From contig CAZRYK010000001.1 of assembly GCA_964604315.1 (NCBI GenBank), positions 2,459 through 66,458 on the forward strand: a stretch of 64,000 bases of DNA. The letters run 5' to 3'. This DNA is from an uncultured Gammaproteobacteria bacterium (GTDB lineage: Bacteria > Patescibacteriota > Patescibacteriia > JACPL01 > CAZRYK01). Below, piece by piece: positions 5,422-64,000 of the stretch. Below the pieces are notes generated by a model. That model searched no databases. It had not been told where the DNA came from and was given only the letters and a program-made list of their open reading frames with translations. Each line of letters starts with the position of its first letter. Within the stretch, counting starts at the first letter, position 1. The translations under genes and the position numbers were made by a program.

Positions 5422-5579
5422 TGTGTGAGTGTGAGTAGTTCGCCCGCCTTTGCTAGAGCTTCGGCGAGGCAAGTATTTAGGGGTAAACTTTGCTCAAGAG
5501 GTTTTAAAAATGTTCTGCCTTGCGCTAAGTACAAAATACTAATTACGCATTACTCAAACTTTGCGTGAGCAAAGTTTAC
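5422..5579 (-). repeat. tRNA 3'-flank repeat element, copy C
   Basis: Reverse complement aligns along its length with the elements at 58987-59156 and 62553-62708. Begins CGTAAACTTTGCTCACGCAAAGTTTG directly after the tRNA-Cys 3' end and ends ACTCACACTCACACA. Confidence 0.7.
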
Positions 5580-5581
5580 GG

Positions 5582-39201: not shown

Positions 39202-39768
39202 TTATCCCTTACGCCTTATTTCCAGATCGTACAAAATTTCTTCCATGCGCTTAAGATTGCGCTTGGCGTCATCGAACTTCTGCCGCAACTTGCTGGTTAA
39301 ATTCATCTCTAACATCTGCGCCACCACTTCTTCCACGGTTTTGACACTCTCCCGAACATCGGTCTGGCCGCTCGACACCATTTTGATGGTATGGCGCACA
39401 ATTTCGCCGGTCATGTCTGCTAGACCGCCAAGATATTCTTCGTAAAAGACGTTCATGCCTTTAATGGCCGTAAACGGTTTCTTTTCTATGTGACGCAAAA
39501 ACATCGTAGCTTCGACAAATTCTTCCACCGCGGCGCGATAGCTTCCCTCAAACTCCAATTTGGGGTTTTTAGCAAACGATGTTTTGAGCGATGCTAATTT
39601 TCCCTGCGCCAACGCCAAATTCTTTTTGGCCTGTTGCTTATCGCCACGATGCAGATCAAAAACCGCCCGCTTGGACAATTGCAAAGCTTCAGACGATGTG
39701 CGCACAATGCGATTGCGTTCGCGGTAATAAGTTGCGTGCTCGGTTTTGAGTTTTTGGAAAAGCGTCAT
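39202..39768 (-). CDS. All-alpha hypothetical protein, possibly Translin-family
   Basis: 188 aa; C-terminal pattern 'GGLADMTGEIVRHTIK...EEILYDLEIR'. Weak assignment. Confidence 0.35.
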   Translation of the reverse strand: MTLFQKLKTEHATYYRERNRIVRTSSEALQLSKRAVFDLHRGDKQQAKKNLALAQGKLASLKTSFAKNPKLEFEGSYRAAVEEFVEATMFLRHIEKKPFTAIKGMNVFYEEYLGGLADMTGEIVRHTIKMVSSGQTDVRESVKTVEEVVAQMLEMNLTSKLRQKFDDAKRNLKRMEEILYDLEIRRKG

Positions 39769-43698: not shown

Positions 43699-43737
43699 AT
43701 GCTCGTATCGTATCAAAATTCCTCTCTTTGGCAAAGT

Positions 43738-43920
43738 TATAGACCTCACATTATGAAATAGGACTTAGAAATACAAAAACAAGATGAGATGCGACGGGTT
43801 GGAGCAAGAAAAAAGAGGAAGTGTAGCCATAGCTACATTGAGTGTTTTTTCTTGGGAAACCCGAGCAGATCGCTTGCTTTTTGTATTTATGGAGTACTCT
43901 TTCATAGGGTGAGGTCTATA
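43738..43920. mobile_element. MITE-like near-palindromic element with about 45-bp imperfect terminal inverted repeats, flanked by TA
   Basis: TATAGACCTCACATTATGAAATAGGACTTAGAAATACAAAAACAAG ... CTTGCTTTTTGTATTTATGGAGTACTCTTTCATAGGGTGAGGTCTATA. Central palindrome TGTAGCCATAGCTACA. A second copy starts at 63895. Confidence 0.5.
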
Positions 43921-43956
43921 CCTTGGCAAGAGCTAAGCTCTTGCCAAAATCAAAAT

Positions 43957-43977
43957 GTTCGAAACTCGGTTTCGAAC
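43957..43977. repeat. Conserved hairpin GTTCGAAA-CTCGG-TTTCGAAC (family of three)
   Basis: Same stem and loop at 63334-63362 and 63816-63836; preceded here by the perfect hairpin TTGGCAAGAGC-TAA-GCTCTTGCCAA at 43923-43947. Confidence 0.45.
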
Positions 43978-43990
43978 AACAAAAAAACAG

Positions 43991-44665
43991 TCCCGTGTGA
44001 GGGGGGGGTGGGTGGAGCGACCGTCGTCGCGGGTTTGGTCGGAATTGGCATATCCGAATCCATTGCGCGCCATGTGCCGGCGCTCCACCCGTTTCTCGAC
44101 GAGACCCTTCCTTTTGAGGGATCGATCGCGCCGTAGGATAGGCGCTTTCGACCCCAAGGGGGTCTCGTTCGTTCGCTGGGAGCCGTCGGCTCCCAAATCC
44201 CATAGTCGCCGCGGAGGGACAAAGTCATTCCGGTATGGAAACCGGAACTCCTCCGGGCAACGGTTTGCCGGTGAAAACCGGCAGGGGACTCTCGGGCGCC
44301 CAGCGAAACTGGCCGTATATTAAACCGACGGCAAAAATCTGTCAAGTAAAAAACATGTCCAACACCTTGGTGTTGGACAATAAGCAATTTCATCAAAAGG
44401 GAAGGTGGGTGGGGGTGTGTCCTGTCGTCGGCTCCGGCGCCACCGTAATAGCGCGCGACATTTGCGCACCCCCACCCTTCCTCTCGACCCTGGAACCAGT
44501 TTCCCGAGCGGTCTCGGGGAACTGTGGCGCATCCAAGGCCGTGGTTTCGCGAGCCTAAACCCCGGCAGGGGGCTGACACGAGGCCAGGCATCAACGAAAC
44601 CGACTCTATCCTATGCTCACCTTGCCTTCCCGTCAAGCCCTTACTTGAAGAATCCCAAGCCGCAG
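43991..44665. other. 675-bp GC-rich (about 62%) non-coding block with dense nested helices; unclassified structured RNA or foreign insert
   Basis: All ORFs on both strands are overlapping, Arg/Trp/Gly-rich and low-complexity. Perfect local helices include GGGTGGAGCG/CGCTCCACCC, GGGAGCC-GTC-GGCTCCC, CCGG-TGAAAA-CCGG, GTCCAACACC/GGTGTTGGAC and GGAAGGTGGGTGGGGGTG/CACCCCCACCCTTCC. Confidence 0.35.
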
Positions 44666-44679
44666 GATAGTATAGGAGA

Positions 44680-46677
44680 ATGTCATTATTTAAACTTCGG
44701 TCTCCTTATAAACCCACGGGTGATCAGCCGCAAGCCATTAAAAAACTTGTTGGCGGGATTGAAAAAGGCTACCGCGACCAAACGCTTTTAGGAATAACGG
44801 GTAGTGGAAAAACATTTTCAATGGCTTCCGTGATTGCTAAAGTGCAAAAACCCACGCTGGTGATTTCGCATAACAAAACGTTGGCCGCGCAACTGGCAAG
44901 CGAGTTCCGCGATTTCTTCCCAAAAAACGCGGTGCATTATTTTGTCTCGTACTACGATTACTACCAACCCGAAAGTTATCTTCCGCAATCCGACACCTAC
45001 ATTGAAAAAGAAACGCAACTCAATGAAGAAATCGATCGCCTGCGCCATGCCTCAACGCAAGCCTTACTGTCGCGCAACGATGTGATTATTGTTGCTTCGG
45101 TCAGTTGTATTTACGGCTTAGGCAACCCTGTGGAATACAAAGCCATGGCAAAAACCGTTGCGCGCGGAGAGCATATTAAACGTTCCACACTTTTGCATGA
45201 CTTAGTAAAAATGCAATATGCGCGCAATGCCGTGGATTTTCGCCGCGGCACCTTCCGCGTTAAAGGCGAGGTGGTAGAAATTTACCCCACGGCGTCAGAC
45301 CAACGCATTATGCGTTTGCAATTCTTTGGCGACGAGCTGGAAAAAATTTCTGAACACGATCACCTCACCGGCAATCGGATAACCGATTTAGAACGCGTCG
45401 ATATTTACCCGGCCAAACACTATGTGACGGAATCTCAACGGTTTAAAGAAATCAAGACAGAAATTCTTCACGATCTGGAACAGCAGATCGCAAATTTCCA
45501 GAAGGCGCATTTGCTTGTGGAAGCACAAAGGCTCGAACAGCGCGTGCGCTTTGACCTTGAAATGTTGGAACAAACCGGCTATGTGAACGGCATTGAAAAT
45601 TATTCACGCTATTTTGATGGCCGCAAACCCGGCACTCCGCCCTATACCTTAATCGATTTCTACCCGAAAGATTTTCTCATGTTCATCGATGAATCGCATA
45701 TCACCATTCCGCAAATCGGCGGCATGTATGAAGGCGACAAAAGCCGCAAGAAAAATTTGGTGCAATACGGGTTTCGGCTTCCGGCGGCCTACGACAACCG
45801 CCCGCTGAATTTTACCGAATTCACGTCCAAGGTGCATCAAGTGATTTATGTTTCCGCAACACCAAAACCGTACGAAATCTCACGCTCCAAAGTCGTTGCC
45901 GAACAAATTATTCGTCCAACCGGTTTATTGGACCCAGAAATTTTTATTCGCCCCACGCGCAATCAGGTCGATGATTTATTGGCCGAAGTTCAACAGCGCA
46001 CAAAAAAACACCAGCGCGTGTTAGTGACCACGCTCACCAAACGCATGGCCGAAGAGTTGACGGAATATTTACAAAGCCTCAACATCAAAGTGCAGTATTT
46101 GCATTCCGAGGTGGACACCATGGAACGGTTGGAAATTTTGCGCGACTTGCGTTTGGGCGTGTACGATGTCGTTGTGGGCATCAATTTATTGCGCGAGGGC
46201 TTAGATTTACCCGAAGTGTCGTTGGTGGCGATTTTGGACGCGGACAAGGAAGGATTTTTGCGCAGTGAAACCTCGCTCGTGCAAACTATTGGCCGGGCCG
46301 CGCGTCATGTGGAGGGCACCGTCATCATGTACGCCGACAAAATCACCGATTCCATGCAAGCCGCCATTTCGGAAACCGAGCGGCGACGTAAACTGCAACA
46401 AGCGTATAATCGCACGCACGGCATTACGCCGCAAACCATTGTGAAAACGATTCGCGAAGATCGGTTAAGCGGCAAAAAAGAAGAAGACCAGAAAGCCGAA
46501 GAAACAAACGCCGCAGTGAAACATGTAAGCGACTATTCCAAAGAAGAGTTCGCCGCCGTATTGCGCGAGCTGGAGGAACAAATGATTCTGCATGCGCGCA
46601 ATATGGAATTTGAACAAGCCGCCGAACTGCGTGATAAGATGATGGCGTTTAAGAACGCGCGAAAGAAAAACGTATGA
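44680..46677 (+). CDS. uvrB: Excinuclease ABC subunit B
   Basis: 'GITGSGKTF', helicase motifs, C-terminal UVR domain; 665 aa; RBS AGGAGA. Confidence 0.95.
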   Translation: MSLFKLRSPYKPTGDQPQAIKKLVGGIEKGYRDQTLLGITGSGKTFSMASVIAKVQKPTLVISHNKTLAAQLASEFRDFFPKNAVHYFVSYYDYYQPESYLPQSDTYIEKETQLNEEIDRLRHASTQALLSRNDVIIVASVSCIYGLGNPVEYKAMAKTVARGEHIKRSTLLHDLVKMQYARNAVDFRRGTFRVKGEVVEIYPTASDQRIMRLQFFGDELEKISEHDHLTGNRITDLERVDIYPAKHYVTESQRFKEIKTEILHDLEQQIANFQKAHLLVEAQRLEQRVRFDLEMLEQTGYVNGIENYSRYFDGRKPGTPPYTLIDFYPKDFLMFIDESHITIPQIGGMYEGDKSRKKNLVQYGFRLPAAYDNRPLNFTEFTSKVHQVIYVSATPKPYEISRSKVVAEQIIRPTGLLDPEIFIRPTRNQVDDLLAEVQQRTKKHQRVLVTTLTKRMAEELTEYLQSLNIKVQYLHSEVDTMERLEILRDLRLGVYDVVVGINLLREGLDLPEVSLVAILDADKEGFLRSETSLVQTIGRAARHVEGTVIMYADKITDSMQAAISETERRRKLQQAYNRTHGITPQTIVKTIREDRLSGKKEEDQKAEETNAAVKHVSDYSKEEFAAVLRELEEQMILHARNMEFEQAAELRDKMMAFKNARKKNV

Positions 46678-58912: not shown

Positions 58913-58986
58913 GCGCGCTTAGCTCAGTTGGTTAGAGCGTTTGCTCGACACGCAAAAGGTCGGAAGTTCGAATCTTCCAGCGCGCA
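58913..58986 (+). tRNA. tRNA-Val (anticodon GAC), with unusual C at position 33
   Basis: Acceptor GCGCGCT/AGCGCGC, D arm GCTC..GAGC, anticodon stem TTTGC/GCAAA with loop TCGACAC, T arm GGAAG-TTCGAAT-CTTCC. Confidence 0.65.
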
Positions 58987-59156
58987 CGTAAATTTTGCTG
59001 ACGCAAAGTTTGGGTAATGAGTAATTAGTACTTTGTACTTAGCGCAAGGTAGGATATTCTCAAAATATCTTGAGCAAAGTTTACCCCTAAATACCCGCCC
59101 GCCACGCAAGCCGAGCATGCGAGGCGTTGCGGGCAGGCCAATTACTCACACTCACA
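58987..59156 (+). repeat. tRNA 3'-flank repeat element, copy V (includes GC-rich palindromic module 59094-59137)
   Basis: Starts CGTAAATTTTGCTGACGCAAAGTTTG right after the tRNA-Val discriminator; ends ACTCACACTCACACA, overlapping the last codons of vapC. Confidence 0.7.
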
Positions 59157-62552: not shown

Positions 62553-62708
62553 ACAACACGTACCGTATGGTACGTGGTCCACGTAAACTTTGCTCACGCA
62601 AAGTTTGTGTAATGAGTCATTCGTAGTTGATACCTAGCGCAAGGTAGAATTTTCTTAAAATCTCTTGAGCAAAGTTTACCCCTAAATACAAACTACTCAC
62701 ACTCACAC
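62553..62708 (+). repeat. tRNA 3'-flank repeat element, copy A
   Basis: After a 28-nt hairpin (ACGTACC-GTAT-GGTACGT) that re-duplicates GGTCCA of the tRNA end, the sequence CGTAAACTTTGCTCACGCAAAGTTTG...ACTCACACTCACACA aligns with copies V and C. Confidence 0.7.
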
Positions 62709-63183: not shown

Positions 63184-63242
63184 CTCTGTTACGGATTAAA
63201 ATAACGGCGCGCCCCGACGTACGTCGGGGAGGTCGAGGGTAT

Positions 63243-63284
63243 CCCGCCCGCCACGCAAGCCGAGCTTGCGAGGCGTTGCGGGCA
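63243..63284. repeat. Isolated copy of the GC-rich palindromic module of the tRNA-flank repeat
   Basis: CCCGCCCGCCACGCAAGCCGAGCTTGCGAGGCGTTGCGGGCA matches 59094-59137 apart from one base; lies 60 nt after tRNA-Pro. Confidence 0.5.
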
Positions 63285-63435
63285 CGCGAATCCGGCATCC
63301 CCGACCAAGAGAGAAAAAAATGAGGCCAAGGGTGTATGTTCGAAACTCGGTTTTGGACATACGATCTGTGGACAGTTTTTTTGCTTAATCGCAAAAAATC
63401 TATTATACTTGAGCTCTCATCACTAACACTTTTTT

Positions 63436-63783: not shown

Positions 63784-63894
63784 ATTCAACAACCGCGAAC
63801 AGTTGCGATGATGAAGTTCGAAACTCGGTTTTGAACATACGGTTCAAGAGGTTTTTGTTATTGCGTTGTAGGTGTACCCTTCCCCAGACTATAC

Positions 63895-64000
63895 TATAGA
63901 CCTCACACTATGAAAGTGAACTTAGAAATACAAAAACAAGATGAGATGCGACGGGTTGGAGCAAGAAAAAATACGAAGTGTAGCCATAGCTACATTGAGT
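63895..64000. mobile_element. Second copy of the MITE-like element (truncated by the window end)
   Basis: TATAGACCTCACACTATGAAAGTGAACTTAGAAATACAAAAACAAGATGAGATGCGACGGGTTGGAGCAAGAAAAAA...GTGTAGCCATAGCTACATTGAGT aligns with 43738-43845; again preceded by TA. Confidence 0.45.

Follow-up and report, generated by a model that had tools for sequence, protein, structure and literature searches.

A tandem pair of candidate structured RNA genes in a GC-rich block between ruvA and uvrB of a Patescibacteria genome

Introduction

Small RNA (sRNA) genes can occur as tandem paralogs, such as OmrA/OmrB and PrrF1/PrrF2, in which each gene has its own sigma-70-type promoter and its own intrinsic terminator, and the homologous pair GlmY/GlmZ consists of RNAs of ~200 nt with three stem-loops. 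The locus described here, a GC-rich and densely base-paired block between ruvA and uvrB in a CPR/Patescibacteria genome, invites comparison with all of these. Like OmrA/OmrB and PrrF1/PrrF2, it contains what are best read as two diverged copies side by side, each with a predicted promoter and terminator of its own, and like GlmY/GlmZ, its units have three predicted hairpins and a comparable length. Unlike any of the three pairs, however, the units match none of the respective Rfam families in sequence or structure; they are also larger (220-330 nt) and much GC-richer, with nearly all bases paired and no single-stranded seed apparent, and they reside in a CPR host.

Two other kinds of element have to be considered as well. 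The block resembles the large RNAs OLE, ROOL, GOLLD, HEARO/omega RNA and raiA in its overall size (~675 nt) and in being densely folded into many helices, the features behind the comparison made in the initial annotation, but differs from them in that it resolves into two smaller units and has no IscB or TnpB gene nearby. With the REP/BIME sequences, MITEs and palindrome-associated transposable elements it shares an intergenic, hairpin-rich character and a variable site, and it adjoins a genuine MITE; unlike REP/BIME and MITEs, it is single-copy in 64 kb and lacks terminal inverted repeats and target duplications, and it far exceeds a REP unit in length and complexity.

The CPR/Patescibacteria comprise a large share of bacterial diversity, and to our knowledge almost nothing is known of their non-coding RNAs (ncRNAs) beyond the universal ones. 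A structured, apparently promoter-driven RNA pair with no Rfam counterpart would be an entry point to the ncRNAs of this group. Candidate ncRNAs from long, GC-rich intergenic regions are as a rule accepted only when their homologs covary; discovery in such regions is the subject of DIMPL and related pipelines (PMC8723152, PMC8632094, PMC11109978). The block is like the candidates of such pipelines in being a long intergenic region of raised GC content and strong predicted structure with no coding signal, and unlike the accepted ones in being known from one genome, with no homolog found. We therefore regard it as real but unexplained, and as a candidate, known from a single genome, for a new family of small RNAs. 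The best explanation that we can offer, which stands about evenly poised between right and wrong, is that the block contains two genes for structured ncRNAs of an undescribed family, arranged in tandem, each transcribed on its own, and located on the minus strand within a lineage-specific insertion.

Results and discussion

Location, composition and authenticity of the block

The stretch of DNA that was analysed as a whole, hereafter the window, is 64,000 nucleotides long. In it, a spacer of 980 bp separates two divergent genes, ruvA on the minus strand, with its ATG at 43700, and uvrB on the plus strand (44680-46677), and these gene coordinates bear out the position between ruvA and uvrB that the initial annotation had given to the block. 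From left to right, the spacer consists of a MITE-like inverted-repeat element, two AT-rich hairpins and the GC-rich block itself (43991-44665). The MITE-like element (43726-43932) has terminal inverted repeats of 40 nt, and a second copy of it starts at 63895; one of the hairpins, TTGGCAAGAGCT/AGCTCTTGCCAA (43923-43947), lies between ruvA and the left part of the block, termed unit A below. The element and the two hairpins, which had been reported to adjoin the block, were thus all recovered in the sequence. The source genome also carries other small repeat families.

The GC content of the block is 59.7%, against 47.1% for the whole window; the 62% quoted earlier for the block was too high as an average. 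Sub-windows of 200 nt within the block peak at 63.5-65.5% GC. Overall, the block lies 13-18 points over the genome in GC content, and the tRNA genes of the window are similar in this regard (53-72% GC). An AT-rich island of ~80 nt (~44317-44395) cuts the block in two.

The authenticity of the block is documented by two independent Logan contigs, assembled from other sequencing runs, which are 100% identical to positions 43866-44972 and 43941-44989, respectively. Since these two assemblies reproduce the block and both of its junctions exactly, an assembly artefact is excluded; with both contigs 100% identical to the block, no strain variants were seen. Runs SRR12113385 and SRR12113419 both contain the source organism. 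A single record exists for its UvrB (P0001, on an 82-kb NCBI contig), the next-best UvrB being only 67% identical, and the UvrB matches carry the names Patescibacteria, Doudnabacteria and Kerfeldbacteria.

The block is folded beyond its composition

Every helix listed in the initial annotation is present in the block, including GGGTGGAGCG/CGCTCCACCC (44010-19/44081-90), GGGTGGGGGTG/CACCCCCACCC (44407-17/44467-77) and TGTCCAACACC/GGTGTTGGACA (44356-66/44369-79). When the MFE of the whole block was compared with those of dinucleotide shuffles, z-scores of -6.8 and -9.2 were obtained for the plus and the minus strand, respectively. Of the two units into which the island divides the block, the left one (unit A) had an MFE of -166.2 kcal/mol with a z-score of -7.0 to -7.2, and the right one (unit B) an MFE of -109.3 kcal/mol with a z-score of -4.8 to -5.0, its centroid structure resembling the MFE structure. 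Coding sequences served as controls: windows of 330 nt, taken from this window and from genomes of 64-72% GC, averaged a z-score of ~0, with a range of -3 to +2. As control sequences of 64-72% GC also lie at z ~0, high GC content alone does not account for the structure, and the dense base-pairing that had been noticed by eye is indeed beyond chance. Structure in excess of composition, a feature looked for in sRNA genes, was thus found in each unit (z of -7.0 for A and -5.0 for B).

It is to be noted that many helices of the block consist of perfect Watson-Crick pairs, which suits palindromes of recent origin in DNA no less than RNA, and that the block contains perfect inverted repeats of 10-15 bp. 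Folding is also uninformative as to the strand, as neither the counts of G-U pairs nor the free energies discriminate between the two; the plus strand of unit A in fact has a slightly better fold than the minus strand, and one richer in G-U pairs. The assignment of a strand consequently rests on promoter and terminator signals.

Two units with promoter- and terminator-like signals on the minus strand

Unit B is preceded, on the minus strand, by a promoter-like site, TTGACG-17-TAGGAT (44608-44636), which scored 9/12 in a consensus scan and is arranged back to back with a promoter-like site of uvrB. Its body of ~200 nt (44401-44601) was predicted in the MFE fold to form three side-by-side hairpin domains, namely P1 (44601-44543), which is closed by GGUUUCG/CGAAACC and contains CCCCUGCCGG; P2 (44541-44485), followed by a GAGA linker; and P3 (44483-44401), which has the core GGGUGGGGGUG/CACCCCCACCC and is followed by an ACC tail. 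Further along the same strand, the terminator scan located a terminator-like hairpin, TGTCCAACACC-AA-GGTGTTGGACA, followed by TGTTTTTT (44348-44379); its stem has 10 bp with 5 G-C pairs, and its T6 run is found on the minus strand only.

Directly after this hairpin, in the AT-rich island, lies the promoter-like site of unit A, TTGACA-17-TAATAT (44317-44345), which scored 10/12 in the consensus scan. The unit A body of ~325 nt (43988-44311, minus strand) was predicted in the MFE fold to follow the same three-domain plan as unit B. Here, P1 (44307-44172) is closed by UUCGCUGGG/CCCAGCGAA and contains CCCCUGCCGG together with an inserted branched region; P2 (44171-44097) is followed by a GAGAAAC linker; and P3 (44090-44010) is formed by GGGUGGAGCG/CGCUCCACCC. 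The ACC tail (44009-44007) is followed by a C-run, and the 5' CAGU pairs with a 3' ACUG. As located by the terminator scan, the 3' end of the unit (43946-43994, minus strand) consists of GGGACUGUUUUUUUG, which provides a U7 run, the hairpin TGTTCGAAAC-CGA-GTTTCGAACA and then TTTTGATTTT. The terminator-like hairpin of unit A is a repeated module of the genome, which also occurs at 63338 and 63816.

In terms of consensus matches, the order along the minus strand is therefore promoter, body, terminator, promoter, body, terminator, and by the same consensus matches each unit has what is looked for in an sRNA gene, i.e., a promoter and an intrinsic terminator of its own, both on the same strand. 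Such signals are enriched in this region: between 43600 and 44800, the scans returned five promoter-like sites, where 0.9 +/- 0.9 were expected, and five terminator-like sites, where 1.4 +/- 1.1 were expected. Promoter-like sites scoring at least 10/12 numbered only 14 in 128 kb, i.e., in both strands of the window. Promoters of the sigma-70 type are used by this organism, an example being TTGACC-17-TAAACT before a tRNA-Gly gene, and there is no upstream minus-strand gene that the terminators of the two units could serve.

The promoter- and terminator-like signals, together with the AT-rich island, make it probable that the block is not one RNA of 675 nt but two units of ~220 and ~330 nt. The earlier proposal of an unclassified large structured RNA is thus retained with respect to the structure and the lack of a class, and is probably to be given up with respect to a single transcript. 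In the arrangement that we propose, each unit would be made up of a GC-rich body between a sigma-70-type promoter and an intrinsic terminator, and the primary transcripts, terminators included, would be ~250 nt for unit B and ~365 nt for unit A. The modeled fold common to the bodies would comprise P1, closed by GUUUCG/CGAAAC, then P2, a GAGA linker, P3 (GGGUGG...CCACCC) and a 3' ACC tail. In this arrangement, the minus strand would be transcribed and its products would function as RNA.

Units A and B as probable paralogs

The two units were compared with each other at several levels. First of all, they have seven collinear 7-mers in common, compared with 2.7 +/- 1.0 in shuffles, none of 500 shuffles having reached seven; the comparison with the reverse complement yielded only two. 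Plain alignment scores between A and B were marginal (p ~0.02 in two of three scoring schemes). A composite pattern built on P3 matched exactly two places in the 64-kb window, one in A and one in B, with 0 expected. Within the P3 helix, the differences between the units include paired double changes that keep the pairing (AGCG/CGCU vs GGGUG/CACCC). Finally, five of the seven shared motifs lie in different frames of a 228-codon open reading frame (ORF) that runs through both units and is taken up below, which places the conservation at the nucleotide level. Units A and B are thus best read, from their sequences, as paralogs that have diverged within a single family, one without an Rfam counterpart.

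No known RNA family and no homolog in the collections searched

The block was searched for known RNA families with Rfam 15, a test that covers RNase P, SRP, 6S, OLE, ROOL, GOLLD, HEARO, raiA, group I/II introns and riboswitches. At the gathering threshold, the whole window returned 6 tRNAs and nothing else. In relaxed Rfam scans of a 1.1-kb segment and of each unit alone, the best match, to Pseudomon-groES, reached 20.5 bits where the cut-off is 50, and the remaining relaxed matches of the block were miRNA-hairpin noise. No match to OLE, ROOL, GOLLD, HEARO/omega RNA or raiA appeared even at E <= 10 with relaxed filters. ARAGORN likewise placed 6 tRNAs elsewhere in the window and found no tRNA or tmRNA in 43700-44700; as read from the sequence, P3 ends in ACC after a helix of 10-11 bp, and has no T-loop. 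The absence of any known RNA family, which had been proposed after visual inspection for a few diagnostic motifs, therefore extends to the large families whose search the initial annotation had recommended.

Homologs were sought in genome, metagenome and viral collections by means of exact motif patterns, an approach of low sensitivity. In species-representative genomes, the matches listed for the P3 pattern were noise from high-GC Actinomycetota, none of those listed extending the helix by more than 4 bp. In metagenomes, a strict three-motif pattern had 0 matches, and a pattern of junction plus helix had 20 chance matches, all of 58-75% GC. The viral collections gave chance matches inside coding regions only, and low-stringency blastn of plasmid and phage collections gave no match to the block. 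A search of the literature on structured RNAs of CPR returned nothing specific. With no homolog found outside the source genome in these exact-motif scans, the block stays a single-genome candidate.

Two leads from these scans were followed and discarded. Seven metagenome matches belong to a single soil organism and fall at the 3' end of its moaC gene, where they agree with unit A in 33/39 nt; their scores of 26-29 lie within the chance tail, as 108 other pattern matches had a mean of 17.4, a standard deviation of 3.0 and a maximum of 31, and no extended or translated similarity between the moaC region and unit A was detected, so that the resemblance is considered a coincidence. Similarly, a locus with five motifs in order (L067) proved to be part of a coding region, in a genome of 64% GC, and is ascribed to chance. 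Identity to a high-GC organism, which had been named as a sign of recent junk insertion, was not found in these scans, the moaC resemblance falling in the tail of chance scores.

If units A and B do represent a class, they would be founding members of a group of 220-330-nt, three-domain RNAs in CPR/Patescibacteria that act as RNP components or regulators, a generalization that we regard as doubtful. Such a class would be marked by a conserved 3' hairpin with a single-stranded ACC, a minihelix-like and possibly tRNA-mimicking end, and by the conserved junction motifs GUUUCG, CCCCUGCCGG, GAGA and CGACGAC. As to the mode of action, the length of the RNAs and their nearly complete pairing, which leaves few open stretches, lead us to guess, as speculation, that they may be stable RNAs that bind proteins or provide a scaffold, and not riboregulators that work by seed pairing.

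Insertion history and alternative explanations

The genes around the block are of the housekeeping kind, encoding exonuclease VII, a translin-family protein, phosphoglucomutase, a nucleotidyltransferase, FemAB, RuvA, UvrB, a cytidylyltransferase and the DNA polymerase III delta subunit. Genes for a reverse transcriptase, a transposase or a Cas protein are absent from this neighbourhood. Seven relatives, with UvrB proteins 66-67% identical to that of the source, mostly keep the order FemAB-RuvA and then UvrB, with a spacer that ranges from 29 bp to 4.6 kb. In the closest relative (L124) the spacer is 29 bp, and in the others it accommodates one gene (L127), two genes (L291 and L292), four genes (L293) or five genes (L125 and L126). 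The ORFs in these spacers have normal coding signals in all but the very short L291a, several of them being high in GC and foreign, and nothing in the spacers of the seven relatives resembles the block. Such variable and unrelated content indicates that the block is a lineage-specific insertion at a hotspot, and the 29-bp spacer of the closest relative implies that the RNAs are not ancestral or essential.

The hotspot also lends substance to the strongest of the rival readings, namely that the block is a functionless or selfish structured insert, i.e., foreign or mobile-element-derived palindromic DNA that landed in a hypervariable spacer and was not selected as RNA. We consider this unlikely, but a serious contender: unrelated and often high-GC foreign genes occupy the site in L127, L292, L291, L293 and L125 where the closest relative has 29 bp, the MITE and repeated hairpin modules adjoin the block, many of its helices are perfect, and the exact-motif scans found no homologs. 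Against it, the foreign high-GC DNA of the relatives consists of coding sequence of the ordinary kind, its fold z-scores being ~0 compared with -5 to -9 for the block, and the layout of promoters and terminators and the pattern of diverged paralogs would be unexpected of junk. Nor does the block look like a mobile element, as no terminal inverted repeats or target-site duplications flank 43985-44640, no second copy of any part of it exists in the 64-kb window, and nothing in the plasmid and phage collections matched it. On these same observations, the idea that the block was carried with the neighbouring MITE is without support; of the earlier suggestion of a foreign insert arriving with that element, it is the insertion that stands, being lineage-specific as judged from the 29-bp spacer of the closest relative, and the vehicle that lacks support. 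Should the block nonetheless prove to be a functionless insert, it would still document the ruvA-uvrB spacer as a hypervariable insertion site in this lineage.

A distinctly less probable reading is that the RNA is made from the plus strand, either as one large RNA or as a long 5' leader of uvrB, starting from a weak promoter-like site at 43923-43950. This site is the one plus-strand promoter-like site upstream, no plus-strand terminator lies between the block and uvrB, and, as described, the plus strand folds well (z of -6.8), unit A even slightly better than on the minus strand. However, a leader would be expected at a conserved position upstream of uvrB, and nothing comparable was found there in the seven relatives; no riboswitch or leader family was matched; and the T-runs of the terminator-like hairpins are on the minus strand only. 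In addition, a promoter-like arrangement read from the sequence on the plus strand just before uvrB (44645-44679), TTGAAG-17-TAGTAT followed by AGGAGA and the ATG at 44680, suggests a start downstream of the block, although this is a weak match of 8/12, below the threshold of the scan. By the geometry of these hexamers, the uvrB mRNA may start at or near the ATG, which would leave the block outside the uvrB transcript.

More improbable still is an element that acts at the level of DNA, with clustered hairpins that form in single-stranded or cruciform DNA, as in sites of recombination or of transposase recognition such as REP, PATE and attC, or in an origin of replication or transfer. The perfect inverted repeats of 10-15 bp, the roughly equal folding of both strands and the presence of other small repeat families in the genome would all suit such an element. 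However, the neighbourhood lacks a partner gene, such as one for a Y1 transposase, an integrase or a relaxase, and the window has only one copy of the block. Its helices also contain G-U pairs, for example four in P1 of unit B, and in DNA these positions would be mismatched. The layout of promoters and terminators would be left unexplained.

The minus-strand ORF is almost certainly spurious

The two-gene reading, in which the minus strand encodes structured RNAs, also has to be reconciled with the ORF of 228 codons (242-codon open frame) that spans both units on this strand (43950-44636) and for which the source record gives a hypothetical protein of 213 aa (P0121). The initial annotation had described every ORF of the block as overlapping and of low complexity, and hence the block as non-coding; the conclusion holds, with the correction that this one frame of 228 aa covers nearly the whole block. 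The open frame is indeed unusually long, its length having been reached in 4 of 5000 mononucleotide shuffles (p = 0.0008) and in 37 of 4000 dinucleotide shuffles (0.009). Nonetheless, an exhaustive phmmer search against 1.84 billion representatives recovered only the self-hit P0121, and Pfam had no match for the ORFs of the block or for any of its six frames. A six-frame word-index search also found nothing, a result of little weight, as it missed the self-hit too.

The composition of the ORF is likewise not that of a gene. Its GC content is flat over the three codon positions (0.57, 0.59 and 0.59 for GC1, GC2 and GC3), and its period-3 score is 0.41, compared with 4.3 for uvrB and 6.8 for ruvA. 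Among 17 ORFs of the relatives, 16 scored 3-22 in the same measure, the exception being the short, 108-aa L291a (1.08). Furthermore, both a terminator-like hairpin and a promoter-like site lie within the frame, which continues straight across them. The reading of the ORF as a real orphan gene for an Arg/Gly/Pro-rich protein of 213-228 aa, which has its length and its prediction by gene callers in its favour, is thus highly improbable in view of the lone self-hit, the missing Pfam match, the flat codon positions and period-3 score, the A-B motifs shared across different frames, and the signals that the frame crosses. The 213-aa hypothetical protein is almost certainly a spurious call, and its placement across the block illustrates a problem of annotation.

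Likeness of unit A to moaC and possible pairing of the two proposed RNA units

Among the matches listed, the 3' end of moaC from a soil organism of 70% GC was the sole extended likeness to unit A, the larger of the two proposed minus-strand structured RNA genes between ruvA and uvrB. The two were identical at 33 of 39 nucleotides (CTCGTCGAGAA..GGGTGG..CCGGCACATGGCGC), and the matches fell in metagenome loci L269 (near 2210-2306), L273, L275, L279, L281, L286 and L287. Homology was considered as the source of this likeness, which was judged coincidental once it had been calibrated against the other pattern matches.

Between the units themselves, a 14-nucleotide stretch in the P2 hairpin domain of unit A (UCAAAAGGAAGGGU; 44104-44117) was found to be 86% complementary to the 3' tail of unit B (ACCUUCCCUUUUGA; 44393-44406). 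This could allow pairing of the unit A RNA with the unit B RNA, or the folding of a read-through transcript across both units.

Flanking genes and the spacer in relatives

Promoter-like elements were located at the starts of both flanking genes, namely TTGCCA-16-TACGAT for ruvA (43700-43734, minus strand) and TTGAAG-17-TAGTAT for uvrB (44645-44680, plus strand). In both, just 6-8 nucleotides separate the end of the -10-like hexamer from the ATG, a predicted geometry that implies leaderless mRNAs or mRNAs with a very short leader; despite this geometry, an AGGAGA motif is also present at uvrB.

Across related CPR genomes the ruvA-uvrB spacer is hypervariable, ranging from 29 bp to 4.6 kb (L124, 9972-10000; L291, 5007-6000; L127, 8931-10000; L292, 4339-6000; L293, 2283-6000; L125, 5367-10000). 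High-GC protein genes, such as those for a HATPase_c_3 protein and a sigma-70 factor, are frequent in these spacers and were apparently acquired horizontally.

Repeated elements in the window

A MITE-like element, bounded by 40-nucleotide terminal inverted repeats and carrying a hairpin in its interior, lies at 43726-43932, and its second copy (63895-64000) extends beyond the window end; the two are 94% identical across 106 nucleotides, the second being incomplete within the window. The hairpin GTTCGAAACTCGGTTT(C/T)G(A/G)AC, found in three copies (43957-43982, 63338-63363 and 63816-63841), is a terminator-like or REP-like repeated module.

A repeat of about 110 nucleotides, 88-100% identical among its copies (58985-59094, 62580-62689 and, on the reverse strand, 5468-5580), starts immediately at the 3' end of a tRNA gene in all three cases (Val, Ala and Cys); after it come a variable GC-rich segment and TACTCACACTCACACA. 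A mobile or integration module linked to tRNA is one possible reading of this repeat, a co-transcribed RNA another. Additionally, a GC-rich repeat of 49 nucleotides occurs at 59094-59142 and 63243-63291, the latter copy within a structured GC-rich stretch of about 100 nucleotides located 3' of tRNA-Pro (region 63205-63385). This stretch is followed by a GTTCGAAAC hairpin and a GGACAGTTTTTTTG tail, both of which are also present after unit A, and the region may represent a further small structured RNA with the terminator module of unit A.

A translin-family gene

Translin is found chiefly in eukaryotes and archaea. A member of this family (PF01997, E = 3e-23) is encoded at 39202-39768 on the minus strand, amid DNA-repair and nuclease genes, which encode exonuclease VII, a PD-(D/E)XK nuclease and an RNase H-like exonuclease.
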